Source of the DNA: Bacteroidota bacterium
GTDB taxonomy: Bacteria; Bacteroidota; Ignavibacteria; Palsa-1295
Length of the DNA stretch: 64,000 nucleotides
Assembly (NCBI GenBank): GCA_021324735.1
Contig: JAJPIO010000006.1
Span: 15,667 to 79,666, forward strand
Reading direction: 5' to 3'
The notes under the pieces: model-generated
What the model saw: only the letters and a program-made list of their open reading frames with translations
Told to the model about the DNA's origin: nothing
Databases searched by the model: none
Position numbers and translations under genes: made by a program
Part shown: piece after piece, positions 17,549-57,520 of the stretch
Layout of the letters: every line of letters starts with the position of its first letter
Numbering within the stretch: the stretch's first letter is position 1

Positions 17549-17585
17549 AGTGCTTGAGCTGTTAAAGTCCAAGCACTACTTTTTG
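17549..17585. terminator. bidirectional terminator-like hairpin between convergent genes
   Basis: AGTGCTTG-agctgttaaagtc-CAAGCACT followed by ACTTTTTG. The loop contains the stop codon of the minus-strand gene. Confidence 0.45.
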
Positions 17586-19382
17586 CGTTTGGGACTTGCC
17601 CTCCGAAGATATTCGTAAGAAATATACTCCCGATATTTCTTGCGGTAATAGTACTTCCGATCCGCCGCTACCTTGAATTGTTTGATCGAAGCAGGTGCTG
17701 CCAAGAAGATTGAGCAGTTCAATTCGTACCGGCCCAAGATCAGTTAACGTTACGCTCAGTCTTTTTCCGATCAGGGAGAATTGTATCTTACTCTGGACGG
17801 GGTTCTCGGTGACCTTTGAGAGTGGCGCTAATGAGATAGATACGTTGTGAGAGTTTGTTTTGTGGATCACTGCAATCCCACCTGTCGCAAGAGGCCGCCA
17901 CGACCACCCATCTGCTCCGAGAATGTCCGAACTTACTCCGGAAAATAGTGGCAGGGCGCCCGTATCGATTGTAATAACGGAAGGCTCATTCGGCAAGCGG
18001 ATAAGCTCCGTCGAGTTAGTGTCCCACGTAGTATATTTTAGCGTGCCGCTCGAAAGGTCAACGGTAGTAACGACCGAACTCGATCGCAGAATATGAGGAG
18101 CGTCTGCTGGAGCCAGCACCGGATCTGCTGCCATCGCATTCAAATAATGACGTACATAATCGCCGTAGCCATCCGTAAACCAAACGTAGTCAAACGGATA
18201 ACGGTTGGAGCCATCGGAATCGACAGAATAGGTTGCCCAATTAAGCTGGAGAATAGACTCAGCCACTCGGGAAGTGTCGCCGGTTGCTTCGGCATAGAGC
18301 AGCTCGGTGGCAGCATAATCTGCCGTATGGCTATTACCGACCACCATATATTGCGTCTGCTCCATGATGGGATAGACGTTATAGTCGGACCAATCAGAAT
18401 CAGCGAAGGTAGTATAGGTCCAGTCTAAAACGGCACGAGCATGTTGCTGCCATTGGGGATCGCGCTCGGGATGAGCGATTAAATATCGCACGAACGCAGT
18501 AGCGTTGATCTGGGTATTGCTATATCCAACGACATCCTCATAGAACGGTCCCCATTCCTCCGTTTGTACAGGCGCGGTTAGTAACCAGTTGAATAATAAC
18601 GAATCGGCGTGCAACAGTGTACCGGAAGTATCTAACCCCATTCCAGAAAGACGCTCGAACAACTGCATCGTGGGCGTCCAGTTGGTAGTGTAAGGATTAG
18701 AAGTTTCGAGATCGGGAAGTTCGCCGGTTAATGCGTAAACACGGAATGGCATGGGCGATGTAGCCGTGTCCCCTATTTGTGTGTGATATGCTAAGGTAGT
18801 CGCAATGCCGGAAGCAATTCGTAAATAGGTAGAATCGCCGGTCATCTCGAATAGCGTTATTAATTGATTGCCGAACGACCCCGCTTTATCCGGCTGCAGG
18901 TAGCCTTCTCCGGCGATAAGGTCACCATCATATATAGCGTTGGCGGTAGTATTGCAGGGATACGGAAGATTTGACCAGTCGGCGATTGCTTGGGAAAGCG
19001 GACTTTGAAGATACGTTTCGGCTATCATCCTCATATTATCAACGATGCGCCTATCACCTGTATAGGCATAGAGCCGTGACCAAGAGTCGAGGATCATCGC
19101 AAACTCGTCGCCTGCGATGCCAAGATGATCGGTAGTATCGTCCCAGGTTCGATAGACCATATAGATCGGAGCACCACCGGGACACGTATCGACCGTTCGC
19201 CAAAAATCCCATAAACGATGGAGGCAATAATCGTAAGAAATGGCAGGATCGTCCGTCACCCATGGCAAAATATTACCATTAAGATCGGTCCGGACGTCGT
19301 GATCGCCTAACGACTGGGAAAACCCGGACGAAAAAGCGGCGACTAACAAAAAAATGGCAAAAACAGCCTCTCTTAGCCCCAC
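17562..19382 (-). CDS. T9SS C-terminal-domain secreted protein (alpha-rich catalytic-like body, function unknown)
   Basis: 606 aa with a signal peptide. The C-terminus KVTENPVQSKIQFSL...GVYFLRISSEGKSQTQKVVLGL is a T9SS sorting domain. Confidence 0.7.
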   Translation of the reverse strand: MGLREAVFAIFLLVAAFSSGFSQSLGDHDVRTDLNGNILPWVTDDPAISYDYCLHRLWDFWRTVDTCPGGAPIYMVYRTWDDTTDHLGIAGDEFAMILDSWSRLYAYTGDRRIVDNMRMIAETYLQSPLSQAIADWSNLPYPCNTTANAIYDGDLIAGEGYLQPDKAGSFGNQLITLFEMTGDSTYLRIASGIATTLAYHTQIGDTATSPMPFRVYALTGELPDLETSNPYTTNWTPTMQLFERLSGMGLDTSGTLLHADSLLFNWLLTAPVQTEEWGPFYEDVVGYSNTQINATAFVRYLIAHPERDPQWQQHARAVLDWTYTTFADSDWSDYNVYPIMEQTQYMVVGNSHTADYAATELLYAEATGDTSRVAESILQLNWATYSVDSDGSNRYPFDYVWFTDGYGDYVRHYLNAMAADPVLAPADAPHILRSSSVVTTVDLSSGTLKYTTWDTNSTELIRLPNEPSVITIDTGALPLFSGVSSDILGADGWSWRPLATGGIAVIHKTNSHNVSISLAPLSKVTENPVQSKIQFSLIGKRLSVTLTDLGPVRIELLNLLGSTCFDQTIQGSGGSEVLLPQEISGVYFLRISSEGKSQTQKVVLGL

Positions 19383-19706
19383 GTGAAGATACCTTTTCCT
19401 ATAGAGTCTTAACGGTCCTAATAGTTGAACCCGCAGAAGACAATATTATCACACAAATCAGATTCTTAATTTGACGGATATATTACCATAACATGAAATC
19501 AAAGCCAATTAGTTAATTTTGCAAAACCTTATACGAGACACTGCGTTCTTCTATCGGTAAGTAATTTTACGCCTGAGAAGAAAAGACTGTTGCTGTCTTG
19601 CGTCGTACCTCGAGCTACTTCCACAAAAATCGCACAAATTTACACGAAGTCCCAATGGCACAGAAATGAACTGTGCCGGGACATGATATGACCTGATCCC
19701 TTTATT

Positions 19707-22163
19707 ATGCGGCGTTTCCCCTTCCTGTTCTCACTACTTCCCTTTTTCGTTATTTCGCTTTCCTTTTTCGTTTCGTCGTTGTCTTCGGTCTGTTATGGGC
19801 AAGCTTCGGCCAATCCGGCTCAGCACACCTTGCGGTTCGATTCGAACGGGTACATTCGCGCCAATATGGTAGCCCGTGGCGATACGGCTTATACGGTCGA
19901 GTGCTGGGTCAAACCGGACGCAAAAGACCAAAAAGCTCGCATTTTTTCGTTTGCCGCTTCGGATACGGTCATGTCCTATGGATTGTACATGCACAATGGT
20001 ACCGGCAGACCAGGGATGTGCGCCTCGATCTCCCTTCGCGATCCCGATAATAACTTATGGAATAACTGTGTAACGGGGACTACCGCGCGTCTTCGTTCCG
20101 ACCGATGGACTCATGTTGCTCTTACGCGTAGTGGCCTCATCTGGAAGCTCTATCGGAATGGCGAATATGTCGGTTATGCCTCACGCCCAGTCGGTACTCC
20201 GGCATTCAAGGTCTTGATCGGCAAGCACTTTTCGGGTAAGATCGCGGACCTGCGCGTCTGGACGGTTGCCCGCTCCCAGGATTCGATCCGCTCTCGAATG
20301 TATACACGGCTTTCCGCCAATGAACCGGGATTGCTCATCTACTATGACGGATCGGTCCGCGCGTATGGAAGTAAAATTTGCAATGCTTCGAAACTGGGTA
20401 ATCCGGATTCGCTCGATGGCGTATTAACCGGCAATGTGGTCGTTGATTCGATCTCAAACGATGCTCCTCCGCTGCGAATGTCGGTACCGAACATTACGAT
20501 ACTGAGCATGCCGCGTCCGCTCCAATTTTTCGCACGGGACGCAAACGATTCGGCACATATTACGATCGCTGGTACTGCTAGAAGTGGGGTGTACGATAGT
20601 GCCATTGTAGAGATCGAACGAAACGACACACTCGTTCGGACCTTACGATCGCATTTGGACGAGTCAATGTCGTTTCAATTAACGGCGTCCATTCATGCCG
20701 AGCTTTCGCAATATTCTCTTCGACTGTTGCTAAAACACGGTGATACGACGTGGGTGGTACGGGAAGCGAACGACCTCGTGTGTGGCGATGCCTTCCTTGT
20801 TACCGGCCAGTCGAACTCCCATCCCGCCGATACCGCCATCATTCAGCAATCCCCATATCTGCGGACGTTCGGTGTACAGACCACGAATTCCAATCTCGAT
20901 CCCTATGATCCAGCCGATACATTATGGGGAATCGCTAACGGTCATGGGTTTGGTCAGACGCTTTCGGGTCCGTATTTAACAGGTGTGTGGGGATATCATA
21001 TTCAGGAACGGTTGATGCAAAAGTATCACCTCCCTATCTTCATTCTTAATGGAGGCGCCGGCAACTCGACGATCGAAGCGAACCTCCCGCCAGGCGACCC
21101 CACAGATCTCAAAACGATCTACGGCCGTACCCGATATCGTGCCCTCAAGAGCGGCCTCGATAATTACTTCAAAGCGATCTTTTGGTACCAGGGCGAATCG
21201 AATACGATCTCGAACTACTATAAGAATTTCCAGACCTTATACAGCGGTTGGTTGGCACATTATCCCAATGCGAAGAAATTCTATGTGTTTCAGGTGCGGC
21301 CAAGCTGGTGCGGAGCCGGACTAACCGGCGCACTTCGCAACCTTCAACGTACCCTGGCCGATAGCCTGCCGAACATTCGTGTTATGTCCACTGCCAGCAC
21401 GCCGGGACATAATGGATGCCATTTTAGTGCTGATGGCTATATCGCTATTGGCGAATCGATCCTTCCCTGGGTCGAGCATGATTTTTACGGCGGTACCGAT
21501 ACAGTAAATGCCGATGCACCGATGATCAAATCGGCGGCGTTCACCACAGTAAAACGCAATTGTATTGCTCTTACATTTAAAGGCAATAATCTCGGGCTTC
21601 ACATCATTGGCGATACATTAGCCTCAGGAGAATCCCTAAAGAATTACATCTTTCTGGATAGTACGCAAGCTTCGATCCAGTCGGTCACGATCTCGCAGGA
21701 CACGGTCTATCTTAATCTGAGTGGCCCGAGCAGCGCAACTTCCGTTACGTACTTGCCCGAGCAATATTTCAACGGAACGATCAAGACCTATGAAGGCCCC
21801 ACCATCGTTAACTCACGAAATATTGGGATCTTCACTTTCTATAAAGTGCGGATCAGCATTCCTCCTACTCCGCAAAATAGCGATGTCGACCAGGTATTCC
21901 CGAGCGACTTTGAAGTGTATCCGAATCCATTCTCGAGTAAGTTACATATCCACTTCAGCCTGCACGATTTTTCTTTCATCGACTTAACCCTTATTGACGC
22001 CGTTGGGAGAAGCATCTCGAATATTTATCACGGTGAATTCGAGCCGGGCACCCATACCTTAGAGTGGAGCTTGCAAGACCATTTGCCAAATCAAGCACTG
22101 TTCCTGCGCTTTTCGGTGGGCGGTGTTTCGAAAACGATCCGCCTCCTTCAGCACGAAGATTAA
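19707..22163 (+). CDS. T9SS secreted protein: LamG/concanavalin-like domain + SGNH/DUF303 sialate-O-acetylesterase-like carbohydrate esterase domain
   Basis: LamG-like N-terminal region (YTVECWVKPD...LRVW). GQSN motif in LVTGQSNSHPAD, typical of the SASA/DUF303 esterase family. C-terminal FEVYPNPFSSKLHIHF...TIRLLQHED is a T9SS CTD. Confidence 0.72.
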   Translation: MRRFPFLFSLLPFFVISLSFFVSSLSSVCYGQASANPAQHTLRFDSNGYIRANMVARGDTAYTVECWVKPDAKDQKARIFSFAASDTVMSYGLYMHNGTGRPGMCASISLRDPDNNLWNNCVTGTTARLRSDRWTHVALTRSGLIWKLYRNGEYVGYASRPVGTPAFKVLIGKHFSGKIADLRVWTVARSQDSIRSRMYTRLSANEPGLLIYYDGSVRAYGSKICNASKLGNPDSLDGVLTGNVVVDSISNDAPPLRMSVPNITILSMPRPLQFFARDANDSAHITIAGTARSGVYDSAIVEIERNDTLVRTLRSHLDESMSFQLTASIHAELSQYSLRLLLKHGDTTWVVREANDLVCGDAFLVTGQSNSHPADTAIIQQSPYLRTFGVQTTNSNLDPYDPADTLWGIANGHGFGQTLSGPYLTGVWGYHIQERLMQKYHLPIFILNGGAGNSTIEANLPPGDPTDLKTIYGRTRYRALKSGLDNYFKAIFWYQGESNTISNYYKNFQTLYSGWLAHYPNAKKFYVFQVRPSWCGAGLTGALRNLQRTLADSLPNIRVMSTASTPGHNGCHFSADGYIAIGESILPWVEHDFYGGTDTVNADAPMIKSAAFTTVKRNCIALTFKGNNLGLHIIGDTLASGESLKNYIFLDSTQASIQSVTISQDTVYLNLSGPSSATSVTYLPEQYFNGTIKTYEGPTIVNSRNIGIFTFYKVRISIPPTPQNSDVDQVFPSDFEVYPNPFSSKLHIHFSLHDFSFIDLTLIDAVGRSISNIYHGEFEPGTHTLEWSLQDHLPNQALFLRFSVGGVSKTIRLLQHED

Positions 22164-22321
22164 CGCCTTCCTTTCACTCGTTTCTGTATCAATGCAGATA
22201 CGGGGCTATTCTATAGCCACACATCGAAGATCGCCTGCTTCGATTGCGTATTTTTGAATGATATATAACGTTAGCGTTAAGCACGCATTTGTGTTAGTTC
22301 GTCTCCAATCTGGTATTAGTA

Positions 22322-23596
22322 ATGGAAGTTCGCTCGCCCGAAAGTATTGCACGGCATTCGGTTATTAGTAATCTGCTAAGCGCAGCAGTTGTCGTCTCTG
22401 CGCTTGGATATTTCGTCGACATCTACGATCTGGTCCTGTTCTCGATCATTCGAGTACCCAGCCTTCAATCGCTCGGACTGAAAGGCTCGGCAATACTGGA
22501 CACGGGCATTTATCTTCTCAATGTACAGATGGCCGGCATGCTGCTCGGCGGAATTGCATGGGGAATTCTCGGTGATAAGAAAGGCCGGCTTTCCGTACTC
22601 TTCGGCTCTATCCTCCTTTACTCGCTTGCCAATATCGCCAATGGATTTGTACAGACCGTCGAACAATATGCGGTACTGCGTTTCATTGCCGGGCTGGGTC
22701 TTGCCGGCGAACTTGGTGCGGGTGTTACCCTCGTCTCGGAATTACTGCCTAAAGAATATCGTGGTTACGGCACTGCGCTCATCACTTCAGTGGGCGTTGC
22801 CGGCGCTACCTTAGCATGGTTCATCGCTCAGGAGTTTGGATGGCAAACCTGTTTTTGGATCGGTGGCGGATTGGGCTTAGTGCTTCTCATTTTAAGGATC
22901 GGCATTTTGGAGTCTGGCATGTTCGTCAAGGTAGCGGCAACGACGGTTCGTCGCGGCAGTTTCTTCTCGCTCTTCACCAGCCGCTCTCGATTCACAAAAT
23001 ATCTGCGGTGTATCTTGATCGGACTGCCTACCTGGTACCTCGTCGGTATCCTGATGACATTAGCTCCGGAGCTTTCCAAAGCTCTCGATGTGACTGGAAA
23101 TATTTCCGGTGGTGAATCGATCTTCTGGTTCTATATTGGGCTTACGATTGGCAATCTTGCGAGCGGCGTTATCAGCCAACTCTTAAAAAGCCGTCGAAAA
23201 GTGGTGCTGATCTTCCTCGTAAGTACTGCGACATTTGTTGGGGCTTACTTTTTACAGCATGGCACAACACCTGAAATATTCTACAGTATATGTCTCTTCA
23301 TGGGCATTTCGAGCGGATACTGGGCGCTCTTCGTAACGATCGCCGCCGAACAATTTGGCACGAACGTTCGCGCCACGGTCGCGACGACGGTACCCAATTT
23401 TGTACGTGGCGCGCTTGTACCAATAGCGCTCGTCTTTCAGTGGATGAAGGGCATTCTGGCCTCAAGTTACTCTTCCAGTCAAGCACTTATTTATTCGGGA
23501 GTGATCGTGGGAGTTGTTACGATCGGCATTGCACTCTTTGCACTATCCGGTTTGCACGAAACGTTCGGGAAGGACCTGGATTACGTCGAGACCTAA
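22322..23596 (+). CDS. MFS transporter (12-TM), paralog 1
   Basis: 424 aa, hydrophobic throughout, with MFS-like loop motifs (GILGDKKGRLSV). Nearly identical N-terminal half to the next gene. Confidence 0.85.
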   Translation: MEVRSPESIARHSVISNLLSAAVVVSALGYFVDIYDLVLFSIIRVPSLQSLGLKGSAILDTGIYLLNVQMAGMLLGGIAWGILGDKKGRLSVLFGSILLYSLANIANGFVQTVEQYAVLRFIAGLGLAGELGAGVTLVSELLPKEYRGYGTALITSVGVAGATLAWFIAQEFGWQTCFWIGGGLGLVLLILRIGILESGMFVKVAATTVRRGSFFSLFTSRSRFTKYLRCILIGLPTWYLVGILMTLAPELSKALDVTGNISGGESIFWFYIGLTIGNLASGVISQLLKSRRKVVLIFLVSTATFVGAYFLQHGTTPEIFYSICLFMGISSGYWALFVTIAAEQFGTNVRATVATTVPNFVRGALVPIALVFQWMKGILASSYSSSQALIYSGVIVGVVTIGIALFALSGLHETFGKDLDYVET

Positions 23597-23691
23597 ATTC
23601 GCCCATCCTATTCACCATTCATCACTCACCGTTCACCATTCATCAATAATCATTCTCTCCTGGTTCGTTTGTATTTTTGTAGTGTCTTCCT

Positions 23692-24954
23692 ATGGATATT
23701 CTCGCTCCCGAACGACCTAATATTCGCGCTCTCTTTAGCGCCGCGGTTATCGTCTCTTCCCTCGGATATTTCGTCGATATTTACGATCTCGTTCTCTTTT
23801 CGATCATTAGGGTGCCGAGCCTCAAGTCGATCGGCCTTTCGGGAAGCGCGCTTTTAGATACCGGTATCTATCTCCTCAATGTACAAATGGCTGGCATGCT
23901 GCTTGGCGGGATCGCATGGGGCATCCTCGGGGATAAGAAGGGGCGTCTCTCCGTCCTCTTCGGTTCGATCGTACTGTATTCCCTTGCCAACATTGCCAAC
24001 GGCTTTGTGCAATCGGTCGGGCAATATGCCGTGCTTCGATTCATTGCTGGTATCGGACTGGCTGGTGAATTAGGCGCCGGAGTAACGCTCGTTAGCGAAC
24101 TTCTGCCAAAAGAAGTCCGTGGTTATGGTACCGCGATGATAACGGCGGTGGGTATGGCAGGTGCGCTGCTCGCCTGGACGATCGCCAATAACTTTGGATG
24201 GCAAACGTGCTTCTTTATTGGCGGTGCGCTTGGACTATTATTGCTGACACTTCGCTTTGGCGTCCTCGAATCCAGCATGTTTGAAAAGATGGCGTCGATC
24301 GATGTGACTCGTGGTCGGATCATTAGTCTCTTCACCGATCGTCGGCGCTTCGGAAAGTACATCCGCTGTATTCTCATCGGTTTGCCGACTTGGTATCTCA
24401 TCGGTATACTCATGACCTTTGCGCCTGAATTTGGCAAAGCACTCGGAGTAACAGGCGCTGTAACGGGTGGCGAAGCGATCTTCTGGTATTACCTCGGGCA
24501 GGTCTTTGGCGATATAACGAGCGGCACGTTAAGCCAGGTGATGAGGAGTCGTAAAAAAGTACTTCTCATGTTCCTGGTCGCTGTCGGTGTATTCGCGACG
24601 GTGTACTTTATGCAGGGTGCAACAACACCGCAAATGTTCTACGCTATCTGCGCGATACTCGGCGTCTCCAATGGATATTGGGCCCTCTTCGTAACCATAG
24701 CGGCGGAGCAGTTCGGCACGAACCTAAGGAATACCGTCGCAACCACGGTGCCGAACTTTGTCCGTGGCGCGCTCGTCCCGATCAATCTTCTCTTTCTGTG
24801 GCTTCGTGAGACAGTGTTTGCGAATCTGCCGGGTAATCAGGCATTGATCTATGCCGGTGTCATCGTTGGTAGCTTGACGCTAATCATCGCAATCCTTTCG
24901 CTTTCGGGCCTGGATGAGACCTTCGGCAAAGAGCTGGATTATATGGAATTGTAG
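23692..24954 (+). CDS. MFS transporter (12-TM), paralog 2 (tandem duplicate)
   Basis: 420 aa, roughly 75-80% identical to 22322-23596 (e.g. GYFVDIYDLVLFSIIRVPSL...GILGDKKGRLSVLFGSI). Confidence 0.85.
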   Translation: MDILAPERPNIRALFSAAVIVSSLGYFVDIYDLVLFSIIRVPSLKSIGLSGSALLDTGIYLLNVQMAGMLLGGIAWGILGDKKGRLSVLFGSIVLYSLANIANGFVQSVGQYAVLRFIAGIGLAGELGAGVTLVSELLPKEVRGYGTAMITAVGMAGALLAWTIANNFGWQTCFFIGGALGLLLLTLRFGVLESSMFEKMASIDVTRGRIISLFTDRRRFGKYIRCILIGLPTWYLIGILMTFAPEFGKALGVTGAVTGGEAIFWYYLGQVFGDITSGTLSQVMRSRKKVLLMFLVAVGVFATVYFMQGATTPQMFYAICAILGVSNGYWALFVTIAAEQFGTNLRNTVATTVPNFVRGALVPINLLFLWLRETVFANLPGNQALIYAGVIVGSLTLIIAILSLSGLDETFGKELDYMEL

Positions 24955-25032
24955 CTGTCGAACGAGTGCAACTTTAATTAGGCGGCACTTGTCCGATAGG
25001 TAAGGGCATATCTCTCAAACGCCCGTTGTGTC

Positions 25033-26631
25033 ATGTTACAAAGGATCACTCTCGGCCTGGTAAGGCATTTGGTCGTCCTTACCACCGTTTCCGTCTTCTT
25101 CTGTGCTAATAGCGTTGCACAAACCGCTACCTGGACAAAGGTTTGTCAGCTAAATACTTCCGGGTACGTTACTTCGGCGTACTTTTTTAATTCCACCTCT
25201 GGGCTTATCGGTTATTATGGGACCGGTTATTCATCCCCCATTCTTCGCACCACCGACGGTGGACTTACATGGCTGCCAACCGTTTCACCGACTGCATCGG
25301 GTACCCCCTGGATTACTGACATTTGGTTTATGAACGATCGTGTTGGTTGGGCAACGATGATCTACGCCGCTACGACACCATCCTACCTTTGGAAGACCAC
25401 CGATGGTGGACTGACCTGGTCCCCAACCGGTTTTCCCACCAAGAATCCTTCCGGCGTTCGAGCGACGAACCGTGCTCTTTGTGTCACTCAGTATCAAGGG
25501 GCTGGTATTTCCGTTTCGACAGACCAGGGAGCAACATTCAGCGCATTCTTTGGTAATAATAAAGATCATCTTGGTTTCGTCGATAGCCTGCATGGTGCAG
25601 CAACCGGCTTCCGTGACGAATTTTACTATACCAGCGATGGTGGATTAACCTGGCAGCAATCACCCACCAGTATTAAGAATGAGTGTTGGGGTATTTATGG
25701 AATGCCTGGAAGCACGGTGTTTGTCGCTGCACATGAAGCTCCGGGAGGTGGAATGGCGAGCATCTTCCGTTCTTTGGACTATGGAATGGATTGGGTACAG
25801 ATAGTAAATGCACCCAATGCACTTACCGGTGGAATAGGCGGGAATGGTAAATTCCTATACATTCAAACGCTATCAAAAGGCTTCTACATTTCTGTAGATA
25901 GTGGAATGACCTGGACACCTATCAACGGTCCGTCCAATCAGCTTGACTCCCGCTTTGCGGTGATCGATTGCGCGATCTATGCATTCGATCACGTTGGTGG
26001 GGTATATGTCGCGACCAATGTAACTGGCATCCATTCTATCTGCGGAATAAAGCAGGTCGATCTTGTGGCTTCCCCTTGTAGCGTGGCAAGAAACATCGAG
26101 TATTTGGACAATACGATGGTCGATAGCATCGATATTATCGATCTCAGCCTCATCGATTCCTCCGTGCCACCCGCTATTGCAGGTTCTCTTTCGATCGATA
26201 GTTTGCCTAAATTAGTAAACACTATTCCTCCCGGACGTTCGATGGGTTACATCCTGCGTTGGGCGCCGAGCTCGTTACGTGATACCGGACTTTATGGAGC
26301 TAATCTTCGCCTGATCTATCGAGATCATAACACCCAAACGCTCGATACCACCACCATCACCGTTAGCCTCACGGGACAAGCAGCTAAAGTACAGATCAGT
26401 ACTCCAAAGCGCTTTGCAACTCCCAGGCTCCCTTCCTGTAAAGGAATCGATACCACCCTTCTATTTCAAAATCGGAGTTGCGATACGCTGACGATCAAAA
26501 GCGCGTGGCTTACAAAAGATAAAGAGTGGCTGATAAGTGATACTTCCGGTCGCAGCTTGACATTTCCGATCTTGTTGCCCCCCCGATTCCGTCCTACAAA
26601 TACCTCTTCGATATTTACCATCCACGGCTAA
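25033..26631 (+). CDS. BNR/Asp-box repeat beta-propeller protein, N-terminal part of a frameshifted large T9SS cargo gene
   Basis: Signal peptide. Four S/T-x-D-x-G-x-T-W Asp-box repeats (TTDGGLTWLPT, TTDGGLTWSPT, TSDGGLTWQQS, SVDSGMTWTPI). It ends 1 nt before the next ORF in the +1 frame, immediately after a C7 run at 26578-26584. Confidence 0.7.
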   Translation: MLQRITLGLVRHLVVLTTVSVFFCANSVAQTATWTKVCQLNTSGYVTSAYFFNSTSGLIGYYGTGYSSPILRTTDGGLTWLPTVSPTASGTPWITDIWFMNDRVGWATMIYAATTPSYLWKTTDGGLTWSPTGFPTKNPSGVRATNRALCVTQYQGAGISVSTDQGATFSAFFGNNKDHLGFVDSLHGAATGFRDEFYYTSDGGLTWQQSPTSIKNECWGIYGMPGSTVFVAAHEAPGGGMASIFRSLDYGMDWVQIVNAPNALTGGIGGNGKFLYIQTLSKGFYISVDSGMTWTPINGPSNQLDSRFAVIDCAIYAFDHVGGVYVATNVTGIHSICGIKQVDLVASPCSVARNIEYLDNTMVDSIDIIDLSLIDSSVPPAIAGSLSIDSLPKLVNTIPPGRSMGYILRWAPSSLRDTGLYGANLRLIYRDHNTQTLDTTTITVSLTGQAAKVQISTPKRFATPRLPSCKGIDTTLLFQNRSCDTLTIKSAWLTKDKEWLISDTSGRSLTFPILLPPRFRPTNTSSIFTIHG

Positions 26632-26632
26632 C

Positions 26633-28792
26633 ATGTCTGTGGATACACTGCACGTGAGCGCCTCCTTCATTGGCGTTGATACTATTCACCGTATTCCGCT
26701 CATCGGTTCTTCCCAAGTCACAATGCCGTTTACGCCGCCAATCCCAATGCAGTTCGACTCCGTAGCGACATGCTCTCATGAGGACACCATACTGCAGATC
26801 AGGAATCTGGGCTGCAGTATCATGGCGATAACCAATCTATACTCACTTTCGAAAGACTGGATCATCACCGATACTTCCGGCAATCCACTGCAACTTCCGA
26901 TCAGTATACCGATAGATTCTGCCGTAAGTATTCGTATCCGTTTCAAGCCACAATCCTTCGGATACGAGAACAGTCGAATCACGATTCAATATCACTATTA
27001 TGGTGTGGATTCGCTCGCGACCTTTGCCATCTACGGTACTGGAACAACGCCTGGCGAACTTACTTATTCCAGAAGACTCGATTTCGGTCCAGTCTCCCTT
27101 TGCAGTAGCCTTGATACTGTTCTCACATTCCATAATGGAAGTTGCCAACCAGACCGAATCGATACTATAATGGTGAACAGCCCGTTCTACATTCTCGACT
27201 CGACCAGTTTCCCGATAGTTGTAGACGAAGGCAAGACAGTACGTATCAGAGTGCGGTATTCACCTTCACACAAAGGAGGCGATTCATACGCCGCAACGCT
27301 GAAAATGATGATGAATGGATTACTCTTATTTGATTCACTCAATCTATCGGGCGTGGCAACTGCAGGGCTCTCTTCCTTTTCCACTACCTTATCACACGAT
27401 TCCATATCATTCAAGCCGCGCTCCGAGTGTGATGCACCGGATTCCGTAATATTCTTTATTAACAATCCCGGCTGCGACTCTCTTACCATCAACAGCCTAA
27501 CTCTCGAAGGCAACACGACTCCTGCTCTCGTATTAGAGCAAGGAATATCGCTTCCAACTAAGATCCAAGGTAGTGACTCCATTCGAGTTGCGATCTCTAT
27601 CGAAAGATTGGTACCAGGCGGTTACAAGGGGACATTGCACGCCTCTTTTACGCTGGCCGACGGCACCTCAAAAGATACCCTCATTCCTGTCAGTGCCGTC
27701 ATTACAGCAGGCACACGCACGATCTCGATCGATACCACGGGTGTGAACCTCGGCTCCGGCTCGATCTGTGCTGTGCACGACACGGTACTGCATTACACGA
27801 ATACCGGCTGCTTACCGGTTACTATCCTCGGGTGGCGAATGACGCATTGGAATGGATTTAATGTCGCCGGCAGCGGAAAGTATCCGCCTCTTACGCTTCA
27901 GCCAAACGAGAGCGATTCCATCTATATCACTTATTCAGGCACGATGCCGGGCTCATACTACGATACGGTCTTCTTCTCGTGCGGTACCGATAAAGATTCT
28001 GGCCGTTCAATACCGGTCAGTGTTATCATACGACCGGTTGACTCGCTTCACTTCGAATTAATAGCACCACCCGCAATAAAAGCCGGTCAGAGCTTTACGA
28101 CGGAAATTCGACCGGCGAAAAATATTGCAACGGAAGATCTTCGCCAGATCGCAGGTGTGCTTTCCTATCCCGATAACAATTTTGTTTTCGAATCTCTGAC
28201 CGCGACATCACCGCTTCAACTTCAATATCAGGGACCCTTTGTAAGCGCTCACACCGCTCACATCCCGTTTACGCTTACGAGCACTTCTCCGATCACGTTC
28301 GACACGCTTTTGCCAGTCCTTACCTTAACCAGAGAAGCGATGATCACGGATACCATCGATTACTCTGTCTTGCTCGATTCCATACTGTTTAACGGAGATC
28401 CGAACTACCAACGCTGTACACTGGCAACAGGCGAGGTCACAACTGTTTTGTCGCTCAACGCAGCATGCCCAGACCCGCTCATTATTAATAGCTTATCCGG
28501 CCATCCGCTGCTATTGGCGGGCCTCGTGAAGCCTAACCCAGTTACATCGGACGCTCAGTATCGCACCGAATTATCGCTGCAAGCTCTCGAGAATGGCATG
28601 GTAACGATCGTGCTTTCGGATGCGGTGGGGCGAATTGTTTATACGACGAATAGATATTTGCAAAAAAATACCGTTGACACCGAGCTCTTCGATCTTATGC
28701 AAGAGCCTGCAGGATGCTACTTCTATTCCGTCCGATTTAATTCTCTCCTTGGCAGTGCGGCGAATAGCGGAACACTGATCTTGAAACGGTAA
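26633..28792 (+). CDS. repeated Ig-like/beta-sandwich domain protein with T9SS C-terminal domain, C-terminal part of the same frameshifted gene
   Basis: About 100-aa repeats with conserved Cys and (I/L)TDTSG...L..PI motifs. The C-terminal VKPNPVTSDAQYRT...SGTLILKR is a T9SS CTD. The frame is open upstream back to 26561, overlapping the 3' end of the preceding ORF. Confidence 0.7.
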   Translation: MSVDTLHVSASFIGVDTIHRIPLIGSSQVTMPFTPPIPMQFDSVATCSHEDTILQIRNLGCSIMAITNLYSLSKDWIITDTSGNPLQLPISIPIDSAVSIRIRFKPQSFGYENSRITIQYHYYGVDSLATFAIYGTGTTPGELTYSRRLDFGPVSLCSSLDTVLTFHNGSCQPDRIDTIMVNSPFYILDSTSFPIVVDEGKTVRIRVRYSPSHKGGDSYAATLKMMMNGLLLFDSLNLSGVATAGLSSFSTTLSHDSISFKPRSECDAPDSVIFFINNPGCDSLTINSLTLEGNTTPALVLEQGISLPTKIQGSDSIRVAISIERLVPGGYKGTLHASFTLADGTSKDTLIPVSAVITAGTRTISIDTTGVNLGSGSICAVHDTVLHYTNTGCLPVTILGWRMTHWNGFNVAGSGKYPPLTLQPNESDSIYITYSGTMPGSYYDTVFFSCGTDKDSGRSIPVSVIIRPVDSLHFELIAPPAIKAGQSFTTEIRPAKNIATEDLRQIAGVLSYPDNNFVFESLTATSPLQLQYQGPFVSAHTAHIPFTLTSTSPITFDTLLPVLTLTREAMITDTIDYSVLLDSILFNGDPNYQRCTLATGEVTTVLSLNAACPDPLIINSLSGHPLLLAGLVKPNPVTSDAQYRTELSLQALENGMVTIVLSDAVGRIVYTTNRYLQKNTVDTELFDLMQEPAGCYFYSVRFNSLLGSAANSGTLILKR

Positions 28793-28839
28793 ATGCAATA
28801 GAGGCCCCCTCTCTCAGTGCCTCTATCGCCTTTTGTTCT

Positions 28840-30084
28840 TTATCGAACGACGCTAAAGCGAAGTGTTGAAACTCGGTTGCTAAAGTGAAGGTCAACATAG
28901 TAAACACCTGCCGAGTATTTTGAGACGTCGAACTGGATATGATTCGCTATCCTGGCATCATCGTGCCATACCGTCGCTCCAAGATCATTCCGAAGTGTGA
29001 TCGAGCTGGGGTTCTCAGGAACATCGATGGTTACGATTCCCGTCGCAGGATTCGGATAAATGAGAGATCGGGAGGCGGATTCTGAACCCGACACTCCTGC
29101 CGCCATAATTTTGTACGGTGGCGCATTCGTGTAGTCGAACGACAGCGAAGAACATCCGAGCGCCTGCGAATATTGAAGGCCGCTCATCCCTGCTCCGGGA
29201 CTGTGAATGATGACGCCAGATCCGCCGGTAACCGTCGCACCGTCTTTCAAGTATATGACATTGTTGCTCGGATTGATAATAGTCGAACCTGCTTCCGCAT
29301 AAATAGTCCTGCCTCCGTATGCACCAGCGTAGAGCTTACCTCCCGGCACGACCCAGATATCATGCTGATTTGGGAAATTAGTCGCATGATAATCCGCTGA
29401 TGCATCGATAGAATCAATGTATACGTCACTGGGAATGGCAGGGAAACAATCATACACATTAATATAGGCATTAGAATCGGCGTTGCTGCCGGCACATCCC
29501 ACCGGGCTTGCTGCGGTTATGCTGATCTTCTTTTGGCCCGTAGAATTATACACAACACTTACGGCAGAATCCGTTGATGTTGCGGGACTTGCTCCGTCGC
29601 CCAAATTCCATGCATAAGTACAGCCTTGTACCCCATTATATACTTCTGGAACAAACCGTACTGTATCCCCAACCAGATAAGCACTCCGGTAAACGTAGCT
29701 ACCGAGATCGCAACGAACTTGTGGGATATCACCGATCGTGATATCGCTGCCGTTGTTATTACCGACAACATAGGGATTAGAGGAGGTCACCCGTAATCGG
29801 TAGTGATTTCCCGGTGCCGCATTTATCGTAGCGGTTATACTACCTGTGGTTGTAGATTTGACCTGGCCGACATTTGTGAACGTGGGCGAAAAACTGCCGT
29901 CCGGCCCTGAAAGCTGAACGGTAAAGACGTTCTTTGTGCCGAACGATCCGCTGGCAGTGTAGTCAATGGTAATAGAGCTTCCATTACAGATCGACGTTGA
30001 ACTCACGGCACCCGTGCTAACCGTTTGCGCGGATAATGCACATGGAGTAAGAAAAAGACCGAAGAACACAGCTATTCTCTTCAT
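28840..30084 (-). CDS. T9SS C-terminal-domain secreted hypothetical protein
   Basis: Start taken at MKRIAVFFGLFLTPCALSAQ (signal peptide); the track ORF starts 39 nt upstream. The C-terminus LIYPNPATGIVTIDV...STLRFSVVR is a T9SS CTD. Confidence 0.7.
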   Translation of the reverse strand: MKRIAVFFGLFLTPCALSAQTVSTGAVSSTSICNGSSITIDYTASGSFGTKNVFTVQLSGPDGSFSPTFTNVGQVKSTTTGSITATINAAPGNHYRLRVTSSNPYVVGNNNGSDITIGDIPQVRCDLGSYVYRSAYLVGDTVRFVPEVYNGVQGCTYAWNLGDGASPATSTDSAVSVVYNSTGQKKISITAASPVGCAGSNADSNAYINVYDCFPAIPSDVYIDSIDASADYHATNFPNQHDIWVVPGGKLYAGAYGGRTIYAEAGSTIINPSNNVIYLKDGATVTGGSGVIIHSPGAGMSGLQYSQALGCSSLSFDYTNAPPYKIMAAGVSGSESASRSLIYPNPATGIVTIDVPENPSSITLRNDLGATVWHDDARIANHIQFDVSKYSAGVYYVDLHFSNRVSTLRFSVVR

Positions 30085-30156
30085 GGACGTAAATTGGTTT
30101 ATGACGCTCTTAAAACACGGCACATAACCCGAAGTTACAACTGCGGATATTCGGTT

Positions 30157-31662: not shown

Positions 31663-32595
31663 TCAAATGGAATGATAGCGAATGCCCCTATAATCGTAGA
31701 GGTTAAAATCCGTCAGGCCCGAAAAATACTGGAGAGATATATAGGATACGTCCCCTGCCCACCCTATCGCAGCACCTGCTTCGTTAAATGTGTTGAGCCG
31801 TGGCAAATTGGATGATACATTTCCAAAGTAATAATAATCGTAATAGTATGGATAGTAGCCGCCATCCACGGTTGCCTGGCCAAACATACCTTGCACGAAA
31901 TAATGCGGCGTAACGAAATAGCGCAACCCAAAATCCGATGCGGTTACTGTTGATCTGCTAGTACTCATTCCTGCTGATACCGGATAATTTGCCTCCGAAC
32001 GTGTTTGGTAAAAGAACTCGAACTCATGCATAAAGTCGAGGCCAAAACCACCCTGAAATGAGAGTTCCGGATCGGGGAAACTACTGCCGGAAGCCGGAAA
32101 TACCTTATTACCATTCATCATAAAGGTCAATCCAGGGCCGCCGAAGAGGAGCAATTGCAGCGCACGATCGTGGTGCGTTTCGCCGACCATATTCGGTATT
32201 GTCGCCGCAATTCCCTCGAGACCATGCACTCGAGAAGAATCGACAGACACGAGCACCGGTGCATAATTGAACCACGTACCGGTCATATCATCGATCAAAT
32301 TTCCAACTCCGAGAAATAGGAGATTTGGGATTTCACCACTCCACAACCATTTTACAAGACCAACAGTGGTCGTTTTATCTCGATAAACGAGCCGTACTGA
32401 ATCCATATGACGATCGAGATAAACACCATGCTCATCGTTCTCAAGCTCATACGTCGGCAACCGGCGGCCCTGCATATCCTGCACTTCGGCATCCCGCGGG
32501 CCAAGCACTTGAAGCCGTGGGTTTGTGTGAAACAACGTCCCGCATCCTGCAAACGCAAGCGCTGAAACCACTAAGAACATTTTTGCAGAGGACAT
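31663..32595 (-). CDS. hypothetical lipoprotein (possible outer membrane protein, aromatic-rich C-terminus)
   Basis: Start taken at MSSAKMFLVVSALAFAGCG (lipobox); the longer track ORF would overlap the upstream gene. 310 aa. Confidence 0.55.
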   Translation of the reverse strand: MSSAKMFLVVSALAFAGCGTLFHTNPRLQVLGPRDAEVQDMQGRRLPTYELENDEHGVYLDRHMDSVRLVYRDKTTTVGLVKWLWSGEIPNLLFLGVGNLIDDMTGTWFNYAPVLVSVDSSRVHGLEGIAATIPNMVGETHHDRALQLLLFGGPGLTFMMNGNKVFPASGSSFPDPELSFQGGFGLDFMHEFEFFYQTRSEANYPVSAGMSTSRSTVTASDFGLRYFVTPHYFVQGMFGQATVDGGYYPYYYDYYYFGNVSSNLPRLNTFNEAGAAIGWAGDVSYISLQYFSGLTDFNLYDYRGIRYHSI

Positions 32596-32597
32596 AA

Positions 32598-33299
32598 CTA
32601 TTTGAGAGGATAAGCAACAATGCGGTCGATCGTTACATGGCCACGATTGTGAGGCGCAGTACCATAACCAAAAAAGTTTTCGTCGAGCTGGATGTTTGCC
32701 CATAGCGTCGCCCCTCGAAAAGCAGACATTTGGTCTGATGGAATTTCGAAGCTGTCAAAGCCCAGGTTAATAAACTGCTTGAGGAGTAAATTTGAATCGG
32801 TTACCAAGATCTGTGCTTGTATATTACTCTGTGCTTCCGCGTCCTGAGTATGACAAGTGAATGAAGTTGCAGTATCACGCAGGAGTGTGTCGCCGGGTCT
32901 CGGTGATGTTATGACAGCCGTGAAGCCTGTTTCAAAAGATGTATCGATCTGAAGGTGATATGGGAAAACAAGTGTAACAATGTTCTGCTTGCCATCCAAA
33001 TGGTAAGGCGCAGCTGAATTATAAATAGCGGGCACAGTGCTGCCTAAATTACGATACACCGTATCACCATTGACAATTATATACTGGAGCGAATCCAGAG
33101 TGACGTAGGGATCTAAGTCATAGAGATCCGGCGAGACGATAGTCGACGCATGTTCGGAGCCATCGGGCCACCGTTGCGAAACATAATGGACATCGTATAG
33201 CATGACGCCGTTCGGCGGAAACTCCTGTGGATTCGGCGGCCACACACAACCGCCATAAACCACTATAACTGCAAGTAAGAGTAGGGACTGGAGACGCAT
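32598..33299 (-). CDS. secreted hypothetical protein
   Basis: Signal peptide MRLQSLLLLAVIVVYGG, 233 aa. It ends 2 nt before the start of the next gene on the same strand. Confidence 0.55.
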   Translation of the reverse strand: MRLQSLLLLAVIVVYGGCVWPPNPQEFPPNGVMLYDVHYVSQRWPDGSEHASTIVSPDLYDLDPYVTLDSLQYIIVNGDTVYRNLGSTVPAIYNSAAPYHLDGKQNIVTLVFPYHLQIDTSFETGFTAVITSPRPGDTLLRDTATSFTCHTQDAEAQSNIQAQILVTDSNLLLKQFINLGFDSFEIPSDQMSAFRGATLWANIQLDENFFGYGTAPHNRGHVTIDRIVAYPLK

Positions 33300-39067: not shown

Positions 39068-40723
<1,656 letters not shown>

Positions 40724-40731
40724 TATCTACA

Positions 40732-40763
40732 AGGCCCGCCGCACGGCGGGCCTTTATATTTTT
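40732..40763 (+). terminator. groESL intrinsic terminator
   Basis: GGCCCGCC-gcac-GGCGGGCC is a perfect 8-bp GC stem followed by TTTATATTTTT. Confidence 0.8.
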
Positions 40764-40776
40764 GTGGAGGTTTGGT

Positions 40777-41676
40777 ATGGCATCAATGGTTCTGGCATTA
40801 CAACAGGCCGCACGAGATCCATCGTATCCAGTCTCAAGGCTTCTTCGAGATGCCGCTACACTCGCATTCAAGGTGCGTATCTCGGGCATGGATGACTTTT
40901 TTGATGGGGAAAGGAATGGCTATGAGGGTAAAGAATTGCCTGATTACAGATGGCTCTCAGGTACTCCTGTCGCGCAAACAACCTTCGGGCGGTGGGTACC
41001 TCTGACCCTGGTTGGTTTCGATCAGGAGGGCTTCTACAAAAGGCCTCTCGTCCATTCCGTATCGGAAATAGAAGAAATGATTGCGCGTGCAGGAGGCACT
41101 ACGCTTGTAATGCCATACCCGAACAAAATTGTTGAAATGTTCCGACCACAAGATCCGGATCTTGGTAGTGCAGGGATTCAAGTCGGAATTCATCAATTCA
41201 AAGGCGTGCTTGAACACGTTAGGGATATGATTCTCAACTTCGCGCTTTCCCTTGAAAAGAAAGGACGCGATGTAAATGAGGAGACGATTGAAATCATAAA
41301 ACGAGATGATCTCAATATTTCAAAAAGCGAGGTCAAAGAAGCAACGACTGTAATAAATATTGAAAATCTTCAAGGGATTGCAGGCACTGTGGCTTCTTCA
41401 TCGGTACGGTTCGGCGATTTTTCTTCAATTTTAAACGTACTGAAAAATGCAAACGTCCCGCAGTCCGAGCGCAATGAACTTGAAAATATTGTGGATGAAG
41501 CTACGACGTTGCCCTCAGACGAACGGAAAGGACTTGCATCGCGCGCAACAGCCTGGCTTGATAGAAACAAATCCTTCCTTTTGACCGCCGGCACTGAGGT
41601 TACGAAGCTACTGCAACGAGCTTCACGTTCTCTAAGCCACACTGATGGACACTGTAGCCGTTCGTATGCTCGATAA
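40777..41676 (+). CDS. AbiTii-like abortive-infection domain protein
   Basis: The start ATG has GGAGG 6 nt upstream. The N-terminus MASMVLALQQAARDPSYPVSRLLRDAATLAFKV...DGERNGYEGKELPDYRWLSG follows the AbiTii N-domain pattern (LILELQ...ELNGY..PeYR.L.G). Region GC is lower than in flanking groEL. Confidence 0.55.
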   Translation: MASMVLALQQAARDPSYPVSRLLRDAATLAFKVRISGMDDFFDGERNGYEGKELPDYRWLSGTPVAQTTFGRWVPLTLVGFDQEGFYKRPLVHSVSEIEEMIARAGGTTLVMPYPNKIVEMFRPQDPDLGSAGIQVGIHQFKGVLEHVRDMILNFALSLEKKGRDVNEETIEIIKRDDLNISKSEVKEATTVINIENLQGIAGTVASSSVRFGDFSSILNVLKNANVPQSERNELENIVDEATTLPSDERKGLASRATAWLDRNKSFLLTAGTEVTKLLQRASRSLSHTDGHCSRSYAR

Positions 41677-42941: not shown

Positions 42942-43028
42942 CACATCGCCCCCAGGGCTAATCTTTTTCAAACATTGCTAACCCAGGGCTAACGCCCTGG
43001 GCTGCGAGTACTTCGTCACTCCGTGACT
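42942..43028. repeat. GC-rich palindromic repeat element (copy R) 3' of the hypothetical ORF
   Basis: CCCCCAGGGCTAATCTTTTTCAAACATTGCTAACCCAGGGCTAACGCCCTGGGCTGCGAGTACTTCGTCACTCCGTGACT is about 90% identical to copy L, minus a 31-bp internal segment. It contains the perfect hairpin CCCAGGGC-taac-GCCCTGGG. Confidence 0.6.
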
Positions 43029-55214: not shown

Positions 55215-57515
55215 ATGATCCTCCGCTTGCTTTCTGTTCTCTTATTGCTAAGCTTTTCCGGTCTTGGCTACTCTCAAAGTTTAACCTTCGACTGGGTACA
55301 ACGACAAACCGGTAAAGCTGCGGTCACGACGACTTCGATCGTTTGCGATTCTGCTGGTAATATCTATATCGGTGGGGCCTTCAGTGGCATGGTCAACCTG
55401 GGCGGAATAACACTCACCAGTATTGGACAATCCGATGCTTACGTTGCTCGATTCTCATCGAATGGGTCGCTTATCTGGGCAAAACAGATCGGAGCACTTC
55501 ATACGGGGCAAACCACTTCGATAGCGCTCAGCCCAACAGGCGATCTTTACGCTATCGGTTACGTCTATGACACATCGCTCTTTCAGCTTCCCCCCTTGGT
55601 AAACAGAGCTTTCATTGCTCGTTTTACTGCAACGGGTAAACTTAAATGGCTTTTACGAAGCCAGAATGCCGGCTCGGCCACTCCCAATGGAATAGCGGTA
55701 AATCACACCGGCTCTTCTGTTTACATTGCTGGTACAGAGGCCGATTCCATGTCTCTTGGGACTGTTGGGGTCGGAGGTTGGCCCGCGTTTTCCACACCTG
55801 TAAATTCCATTTTTATCTCGAGGATCGATTCTTCTGGGAGGGTAAGATGGATTCGCAGTACCCACTCCGGCTCTCGCTCGGGTAATTATAACGCGGGGCT
55901 TTGTGCTACCGTTGATGATTCAGAAAATGTCTTTGTAGGTGGGTCATTTGCAGACTCCTTGAACCTCGGCGGTTTGCATCTCACAGGGCTTTATACACCT
56001 ACTGCTGTTCTGCTGAGCCTCGATAGTAGCGGCCAGGCTCGATGGGTCAAAAACTTTGCGGTTCTCGGCACATCGGTACAAGCACTGTGCGCTTCATTTG
56101 GATCATTGTATGCAGCAGGACAATCGGCGTTGGCGATGCGCTTCCGATCTTCCAGTGCAGTCGATAAGATCGTTACAAATGTTGGTACACCACTTGGTGC
56201 CCAAGCCATCACTTCCGATGGCGCCGGAGGAATTTTCCTTGCCGGCAATTTCTCCGGCTCGCTCGCACTCGATTCCGTTAAGATCGGAAATCTCTCCGCA
56301 AAGTTATTTATCCTGAAATTAGATACGGGATTGCACGCCCGATGGGCAGCATATACAATGGTAAATCATGTTACGTACCCTGCCATTGCCGCGAATGCCG
56401 CTGGCCAACGGTTTGTGTCTGCTACGTATACCGATAGCATTCGAATTGGTCCCTATCTAATCGGTACGACTTATGGCTACACCAGTGGGTTCGTGACATT
56501 GCTTTCTGAGTTGGATATTGCCTGCCCTTTCAAACCGGCCACAGCATATTGCCCGGGCGATTCGATCGTTGTACCGGTCGATGTCATTGGACACTTCGGC
56601 AGCGATAATGTTTTCTATGCAGAGCTTTCGGACTCTCTCAGTCAATTTCGAGGACCGAAGCAAATAGGAATGTTGGCCGGCACGTCCAATGGATTTATCC
56701 GGGCGGTGATCCCCAAATCTACCTTACCCGGTTCTCATTACCGTGTGCGGGTTACTTCTACCGTACCTCCTTATGCAGGCGATGATAATGGAGTGAACGT
56801 TATGATAAGCGCCGCTCCCAAAGCGATCATGACGCCTAATGGCGCGATCGACCTTTGCGAAGATGACTCTCTCACTCTTACTGCTTCTGGAGGCGCTCAC
56901 TATCAATGGTCGACCGGTGATACAACGCCCGCTATTCGAGTCGGTGCAAGTGGAGACTATTCGGTCTTTGTCGCGGGTAGCAGCGGTTGTGGGGTTTCAC
57001 TACCACCTGCAACGGTCGTCATGAGGTTAAAACCACCCATTCCTCCCGTGACACGGTCCGGTAACACCATATACGCTAACGTAACCGGCGTTCAATATCA
57101 ATGGTATTACAATCACAAGCCGTTATCGGGCGCTGTAAACTCCAGCCTTGATATCACCTATAATGGGACGTACAACGTAACGGTTACGAATCCATATCAT
57201 TGTACTTCTACTTCCGAGGATTATAGTGTTACTGACCTGCTTCCATCCGCTGTGTCTCAAAATTCGATCTTGCCAATTGTTATTACTGCCGTTAACGGCG
57301 ACAATATTAAGATATTGAATGCAGCCGACGAAAGTACTTTTATCGAGATCGACGATGTTTCAGGGCGGCCGCTCCTTAGCCACGCGGATCGAATAGCCGA
57401 TAACGAAGCTACGATCTCGTTACCCCAATTTGAAGCACTCCCGTCAGGAATATATTATGTTCGTGTCGAAATTGCTGGTCAAGTAAAGACGCTTAAGCTA
57501 ATTCATTCTCACTAA
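55215..57515 (+). CDS. T9SS-type secreted protein with beta-propeller-like repeats
   Basis: 766 aa. Signal peptide MILRLLSVLLLLSFSGLGYSQ, repeated G(G/T)xxS/YxAG blades, and a C-terminal sorting-domain-like ~80 aa (…GIYYVRVEIAGQVKTLKLIHSH). Confidence 0.72.
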   Translation: MILRLLSVLLLLSFSGLGYSQSLTFDWVQRQTGKAAVTTTSIVCDSAGNIYIGGAFSGMVNLGGITLTSIGQSDAYVARFSSNGSLIWAKQIGALHTGQTTSIALSPTGDLYAIGYVYDTSLFQLPPLVNRAFIARFTATGKLKWLLRSQNAGSATPNGIAVNHTGSSVYIAGTEADSMSLGTVGVGGWPAFSTPVNSIFISRIDSSGRVRWIRSTHSGSRSGNYNAGLCATVDDSENVFVGGSFADSLNLGGLHLTGLYTPTAVLLSLDSSGQARWVKNFAVLGTSVQALCASFGSLYAAGQSALAMRFRSSSAVDKIVTNVGTPLGAQAITSDGAGGIFLAGNFSGSLALDSVKIGNLSAKLFILKLDTGLHARWAAYTMVNHVTYPAIAANAAGQRFVSATYTDSIRIGPYLIGTTYGYTSGFVTLLSELDIACPFKPATAYCPGDSIVVPVDVIGHFGSDNVFYAELSDSLSQFRGPKQIGMLAGTSNGFIRAVIPKSTLPGSHYRVRVTSTVPPYAGDDNGVNVMISAAPKAIMTPNGAIDLCEDDSLTLTASGGAHYQWSTGDTTPAIRVGASGDYSVFVAGSSGCGVSLPPATVVMRLKPPIPPVTRSGNTIYANVTGVQYQWYYNHKPLSGAVNSSLDITYNGTYNVTVTNPYHCTSTSEDYSVTDLLPSAVSQNSILPIVITAVNGDNIKILNAADESTFIEIDDVSGRPLLSHADRIADNEATISLPQFEALPSGIYYVRVEIAGQVKTLKLIHSH

Positions 57516-57520
57516 GGGCT

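Follow-up and report, generated by a model that had tools for sequence, protein, structure and literature searches.

A 64-kb stretch of DNA (64,000 nucleotides of contig JAJPIO010000006.1, GenBank assembly GCA_021324735.1; hereafter the window) carries on its forward strand two adjacent open reading frames (ORFs) that meet at a frameshift in a run of seven cytosines (C7). Comparison with homologues shows that positions 25033–28792 are one ancestral gene for a predicted exported protein of 1252 amino acids. The break is probably a real and recent +1C frameshift that inactivated this gene, which encodes a propeller/immunoglobulin-like (Ig-like) protein of the T9SS (type IX secretion system) type, and the result is a young pseudogene or an OFF allele. 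The core of the initial annotation, which had read the locus as a BNR-propeller/Ig-repeat gene of about 1250 amino acids split by a C7 frameshift, thus holds.

One ancestral gene split at a C7 tract

The frame switch is confined to a few nucleotides around the C7 tract. The upstream ORF (25033–26631, 532 amino acids) closes with a TAA at 26629–26631, and the downstream ORF (26633–28792, 719 amino acids) begins one base after the upstream ORF ends, in the +1 frame, which is free of stops from 26561 onward. Around the tract the window reads GATCTTGTTG, then CCCCCCC, then GATTCC (tract-spanning DNA, TTGTTGCCCCCCCGATTCC). Removing one C in silico yields a 1252-amino-acid ORF with zero internal stops, whose peptide over the tract is FPILLPPDSVLQ, and the fused 1252 codons hold no stop and no second frameshift. 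The ATG at 26633, called as the start of a second gene, encodes an internal methionine (STANM/SVD) of the fused protein. The initial annotation had given these ORF boundaries, the C7 position, the open frame from 26561, and the fusion by deletion of one C; all of its coordinates are correct, as are the junction peptides it quoted when checked by translation. Homology places the switch between FPI (26563–26571) and DSV (26585 onward), an interval of 13 nt (26572–26584) made up of TTGTTG and the C7, which is the only G/C run of at least seven in the 64 kb. Given the gap-free alignment with homologues, a C6 encoding Pro-Pro is the most parsimonious intact state.

Relatives of the fused protein are encoded in single ORFs that run through the junction. 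The 1252-amino-acid P0001 shares 37% identity with the fused protein over 98% coverage (E-value 1e-241), the 1319-amino-acid P0002 covers 100% of it, and P0004 (1254 amino acids), P0009 (1246), and P0012 (1229) are collinear as well. FPILLPP/DSVLQIPL aligns over the junction without a gap to FPIGILPDSVLRLPL of P0001 (in shorter form, FPILLPP/DSVLQ to FPIGILPDSVLR); PDSVL is kept across it, and CCC GAT TC is common to the P0001 gene at the DNA level. An exhaustive HMMER search with fused residues 250–949 against 1.84 billion cluster representatives returned more than 20 representatives of about 1250–1300 amino acids that match through the junction in a single stretch, and found no family member of comparable architecture split there. 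Intact relatives in a single ORF, of the kind that the initial annotation had proposed to look for among orthologues, are present in the family, and the separately conserved gene pair that it had named as the contrary outcome was not found in this search. The four homologue loci compared for synteny (L002, L088, L089, and L090) have different neighbours and show no positional orthology. A search of genome contigs with the fused protein gave only a 29% match to a Chloroflexi BNR protein, which we deemed irrelevant, and a search of metagenome contigs built from the family alignment, with the BNR motif as its sole pattern, gave 80 distant propellers, none of them over the junction.

The break also falls inside a domain. 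In an AlphaFold2 (AF2) model of fused residues 440–690, it lies after residue 517, between strands 4 and 5 of the first beta-sandwich. A local alignment of repeat 1, the junction-spanning one, with repeat 2 scores 137, compared with a mean of 27 (standard deviation 5, maximum 58) over 500 shuffles, far above chance and in line with the continuous domain structure that had been proposed from the sequence. Since the junction bisects an Ig-like repeat and full-length collinear single-ORF relatives exist, the locus is best described as one gene. The ENA and JGI gene callers do annotate proteins of 532 and 719 amino acids, as would be expected of two genuine adjacent genes with separate functions. 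However, such a boundary would cut an Ig-like domain in two and divide a protein whose close relatives are all unsplit, and the second ORF lacks a signal peptide yet carries an export-dependent C-terminal sorting domain (CTD). A promoter and terminator scan of 24800–29000 detected nothing beyond shuffle expectation, with no promoter-like site near 26633. We therefore regard the probability of two separate genes as negligible.

Origin of the C7 tract

The C7 tract is unlikely to be a random sequencing or assembly error, since it recurs in three public assemblies (NCBI, ENA, and JGI) produced by different pipelines and no other checked gene in the window is broken. In the NCBI data the window corresponds exactly to a contig of 359,742 bp, GroEL (P0123) included. 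Contig k141_203295 (141 kb) of ENA ERZ27279670 and contig Ga0209062_1005269 (12.7 kb) of JGI 3300027965 both match the window at 100% identity across the gene, C7 and split ORFs included. Over about 36 kb, two single-nucleotide polymorphisms (SNPs; 40123 T>G and 43699 A>T) separate the ENA contig from the window, a divergence that indicates near-clonal populations in the sampled datasets. Both SNP alleles are carried by a neighbouring JGI contig, Ga0209062_1007360, so the ENA and JGI contigs probably share a single source sample, with the NCBI contig as a separate consensus; at least two distinct consensus sequences are present among the three C7 assemblies. The contig name k141_ follows MEGAHIT style, which we take to imply short reads, and short-read platforms rarely produce consensus errors at a 7-mer. 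Among about 30 other window ORFs compared with Pfam, strong matches cover their profiles end to end and none looks split between neighbours; intact examples include arginase, PanC, ArgRS, a Cys/Met pyridoxal-phosphate (PLP) enzyme, PALP, and AIR synthase-related proteins. An artefact, with a true C6 genome and an intact gene, would fit the general proneness of homopolymers to indel errors and the coincidence of the only C/G run of at least seven in the window with the only broken gene found. Given the recurrence of C7 across pipelines and consensus sequences, at least one assembly that looks like MEGAHIT short-read output, and the absence of any other frameshift among the ORFs checked in the 64 kb, we judge it distinctly improbable.

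Slipped-strand phase variation offers a different account of a real C7. Tract length toggles the frame here (C7 out of frame, C6 in frame), and the gene could alternate between a C6 ON state, with full-length protein displayed through the T9SS, and a C7 OFF state in which the sampled populations would mostly be found. The lesion sits in a homopolymer within the coding sequence of a secreted or surface protein, it is fully reversible, and it is the sole defect; a 7C tract in Mycobacterium tuberculosis glpK is known to switch reversibly (bioRxiv 10.1101/717272; PMC10334774). Putative T9SS cargo genes hold both of the window's G/C runs of at least six, a weak pointer with n = 2. However, all three assemblies carry C7 and no length variant was found among them, the tract is kept in no homologue examined (the DNA of four homologues shows no homopolymer there), and the ON tract would be merely a C6, which chance codon choice explains: CCCCCC accounts for 1 of 26 Pro-Pro dicodons, about as codon usage predicts, with CCC making up 21% of Pro codons. 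Far from being enriched, G/C runs in the window are strongly depleted, with 2 observed against about 14.6 expected at a length of at least six and 1 against 3.3 at a length of at least seven. A literature search on homopolymer phase variation and Bacteroidetes gave no paper on such a switch. On balance, we consider phase variation unlikely, and the fuller scenario, in which an uncultured Kapabacteria population switches T9SS display of the propeller/Ig protein by poly-C slippage, for example under phage or grazer pressure, has a slighter chance. An incidental C tract changed by chance slippage fits better than an evolved contingency locus, and we infer that adaptive switching is absent. To our knowledge, phase variation of T9SS cargo through repeats is essentially undescribed in the FCB superphylum.

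Several points weigh against our preferred reading of a real insertion that inactivated the gene in an incidental tract. Surface and secreted proteins are the class in which contingency loci typically occur, and C7 is long enough for reversible switching in M. tuberculosis glpK. The evidence stands at the level of assembly consensus, which could hide a minority C6 population or reflect a systematic homopolymer artefact; the three assemblies may share read sets, their independence being proven only for assembler and consensus. Moreover, public protein data hold no intact allele more than 37% identical, and this orthologue has never been seen in its ON state. A collection of 15 billion proteins does not contain the exact fused protein, and in the HMMER search each split ORF represents its own cluster at 50% identity, and no near-identical intact allele turned up; this absence rests on the exhaustive HMMER search, which recovered both ORFs of the locus (P0121 and P0122). 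A word-index protein search recovered the window GroEL but neither of these two ORFs, and gave no match for a 279-amino-acid fragment over the junction. An exact-pattern scan of metagenome contigs for C5–C9 with flanks of 15 and 13 nt gave 0 matches but also missed the identical JGI contig and is uninformative about tract variants.

Just one other G/C run of at least six occurs in the window, an in-frame C6 (CCC CCC, Pro-Pro) at 55590–55595 in the intact ORF 55215–57515 (+), a putative T9SS cargo with an SBBP beta-propeller repeat and a weak Por_Secre_tail match. CTD-type genes, which harbour both runs, fill about 19% of the window, and with n = 2 the coincidence may reflect chance or relaxed constraint.

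Recoding at the tract could in principle restore some full-length protein, by +1 ribosomal frameshifting at CCC_CCC_C or by transcriptional slippage, and the locus would then yield a truncated periplasmic form together with a full-length secreted form. CCC_C quadruplets are intrinsically prone to +1 slippage of tRNA-Pro (PMC7577736, PMC4519876), and CCC_CCC_C allows perfect +1 re-pairing of the P-site tRNA-Pro. However, CGA, which follows in the A site, is a common codon (22% of Arg codons, 11.5 per thousand), no Shine-Dalgarno-like element was seen on inspection of the sequence just upstream of the tract, and downstream RNA structure is not significant (z = −0.83). All relatives are single-frame without a slippery run, so the site is not a conserved recoding signal. 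Low-level spontaneous read-through is conceivable and a programmed site is not supported; recoding as an explanation of the locus is very improbable. If the switch reading were true, the OFF state might be leaky through low-level tRNA-Pro slippage of this kind. The initial annotation had left phase variation, a recent pseudogene, and error as three options: the pseudogene is now favoured, error has become the least likely given C7 in three assemblies and no other broken gene, and no positive evidence for phase variation emerged.

Protein architecture and genomic neighbourhood

The fused protein combines export signals with a propeller and a series of Ig-like domains (Table 1). Structures were modelled on fragments rather than on the full-length protein. 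The N-terminal 29 residues look like a Sec signal peptide, as predicted from inspection and from an AF2 model in which residues 2–25 form one helix outside the propeller. The propeller scores above the Pfam cut-offs for PF02012 (30 bits versus 27) and PF14870 (27.1 bits versus 27), and its AF2 model has a mean predicted local distance difference test (pLDDT) score of 89 and a predicted TM-score of 0.84. Its best PDB matches are Ycf48 (5ojr and 2xbg; E-value ~1e-11, TM-score ~0.57–0.65), DAIP (5fzp), and GH74 half-domains. A linker region with no assigned domain (residues ~333–454) leads into five Ig-like repeats of about 110 amino acids with a conserved Cys pair (residues ~455–1010). The repeats match NF012200 (choice-of-anchor D; 54.5 bits versus a cut-off of 45, in three stretches) and PF22544 (30.8 bits versus 25.5). 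The two-repeat AF2 model forms two beta-sandwiches, with a pLDDT of about 70–85 within the domains and an overall mean of 59.7, and its resemblance by Foldseek to tandem ASH/PapD-like Ig proteins is supportive only.

Table 1. Features of the split gene, with positions in the window
Feature	Residues of fused protein	Positions	Strand	Basis or remark
N-terminal 517 codons of the ancestral 1252-codon gene, upstream frame		25033–26583	+	Collinear as far as FPILLPP with P0001 and other relatives
Predicted Sec-type signal peptide, MLQRITLGLVRHLVVLTTVSVFFCANSVA/Q	1–29	25033–25119	+	Inspection: basic n-region, hydrophobic core, SVA-Q cleavage motif
7-bladed Ycf48-like BNR/Asp-box beta-propeller	~31–332	25123–26028	+	Pfam and AF2
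First choice-of-anchor-D/ASH-type Ig-like repeat, cut by the frameshift	~455–565	26395–26728	+	Motif C..D[TS]..N.xC at residue 469
C7 homopolymer, one-base insertion site	Pro516-Pro517	26578–26584	+	Inferred intact state C6 (CCC CCC)
Out-of-frame tail RFRPTNTSSIFTIHG and TAA		26585–26631	+	No counterpart in homologues
C-terminal 735 codons and stop of the ancestral gene, +1 frame		26585–28792	+	Collinear with homologues
Ig-like repeats 2–5, choice-of-anchor D/HYDIN-ASH type	~566–1010	26729–28063	+	Cys-pair motif at 580, 690, 799, and 912
Putative type A T9SS CTD	~1160–1252	28511–28789	+	Motifs KPNPV, PAGCYFY, terminal LILKR

At the profile level, the C-terminus is supported as a type A T9SS sorting domain. 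Taken alone, the CTD of this protein stays below the curated cut-offs of both TIGR04183 (17.8 versus 23 bits) and PF18962 (12.9 versus 27 bits). PF18962 is matched by 3 of 6 collinear family members, with E-values down to 1.5e-11. In an hhalign comparison, a profile of this protein and three relatives without a match of their own was aligned with 21 C-termini listed with PF18962, giving a probability of 97.2% (E-value 3.7e-11). The label of T9SS cargo in the initial annotation, below the cut-offs on the single protein, is rescued by these two results.

The window GroEL is 93% identical to proteins of Candidatus Kapabacteria metagenome-assembled genomes (MAGs), by which sequence likeness the host belongs to the FCB group as an uncultured, Kapabacteria-like bacterium. 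The SNP 40123 T>G gives GroEL D348E. PF18962 scores above its cut-off in two other window genes (28840–30123 and 57521–60289), and two further genes have weak matches (17562–19382 and 55215–57515). Among the window ORFs scanned, no gene for T9SS machinery (PorK/L/M/N, Sov/SprA, or PorU/V) was found. Around the split gene lie a 606-amino-acid protein with a weak CTD match (17562–19382, −), a Laminin_G_3 and SASA esterase-like protein (19707–22163), two sugar-type transporters of the major facilitator superfamily (22322–24954), and a PKD and CTD protein (28840–30123, −); a Sortilin/BNR and CTD protein is encoded farther off (57521–60289). This cluster of genes for secreted proteins (17562–30123 and 55215–60289) may represent a glycan-foraging neighbourhood.

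Other features of the window are of separate interest. A candidate second frameshift at 31663–33299 (−), near 32.6 kb, was rejected: the region holds two lipoprotein genes in tandem, both of which have a lipobox (signals …VVYGGC and …LAFAGC) and no Pfam match, and a long overlapping ORF (31663–32703) mimics a frameshift. An AbiTii-domain protein of the abortive-infection family (40762–41676, +; 95 bits) is encoded directly downstream of groES/groEL (39080–40723). An intergenic match to the Rfam small RNA family Acido-Lenti-1 lies at 42982–43028 (+), with 38.1 bits against a gathering score of 37 (E-value 4.6e-05), and its occurrence in a Kapabacteria-like contig is outside the phyla that name the family.

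Consequences and comparison with known systems

A recent inactivating insertion, the reading we prefer, would have arisen by slipped-strand insertion of one C into an ordinary C6 tract, with the resulting C7 now presumably carried by most of the sampled population. From the native start, translation would end 15 out-of-frame codons past the tract, and the predicted 532-amino-acid product would be exported to the periplasm without a sorting domain and with half an Ig domain. The 3′ part appears to lack a signal peptide as well as any evident start signals. Because the truncated product lacks the sorting domain and the 3′ ORF lacks the signal peptide, T9SS-dependent secretion and surface display would be lost, and neither product would hold the whole domain at the break. 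The 3.7 kb contain no second lesion, which suggests that the event is recent. The slippery tract would be incidental and not evolved for switching, and reversion by slippage may be possible at an elevated rate.

The event is of an ordinary kind, in a protein subfamily without a studied member. For annotation, the gene pairs in the ENA and JGI records should be merged and flagged as one frameshifted gene. The locus also documents a subfamily of about 1250–1300 amino acids in which five choice-of-anchor-D Ig domains stand between a Ycf48-like propeller and a T9SS sorting domain. Should tract lengths prove to be mixed, it would count as an early case, from an environmental FCB lineage, of a T9SS substrate under repeat-mediated phase variation.

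The closest likeness to the lesion itself is the homopolymer-tract frameshift of M. tuberculosis glpK. In both genes, seven cytosines lie within the coding region, slippage by one C in either direction inactivates, and reversion is possible in principle at the same site. In glpK, however, 7C is the in-frame ON state and variants have been seen directly in isolates and mice, whereas C7 is the OFF state here and no variant was observed. M. tuberculosis is also without mismatch repair. The slippery CCC_CCC_C and a product in the +1 frame recall programmed +1 frameshifting of the prfB type, but unlike prfB-type sites the tract has neither a slow A-site codon nor a stimulatory element, and it is not conserved. 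At the protein level, YCF48-related/T9SS type A proteins from Ignavibacteria, Kapabacteria, and Bacteroidota MAGs share the signal peptide, the 7-bladed propeller, and the Por_Secre_tail domain. Most of the listed YCF48-related relatives are about 700 amino acids long and consist of one or more propellers and the CTD only, whereas the present subfamily of about 1250–1300 amino acids has five choice-of-anchor-D/ASH Ig-like domains inserted between propeller and CTD.

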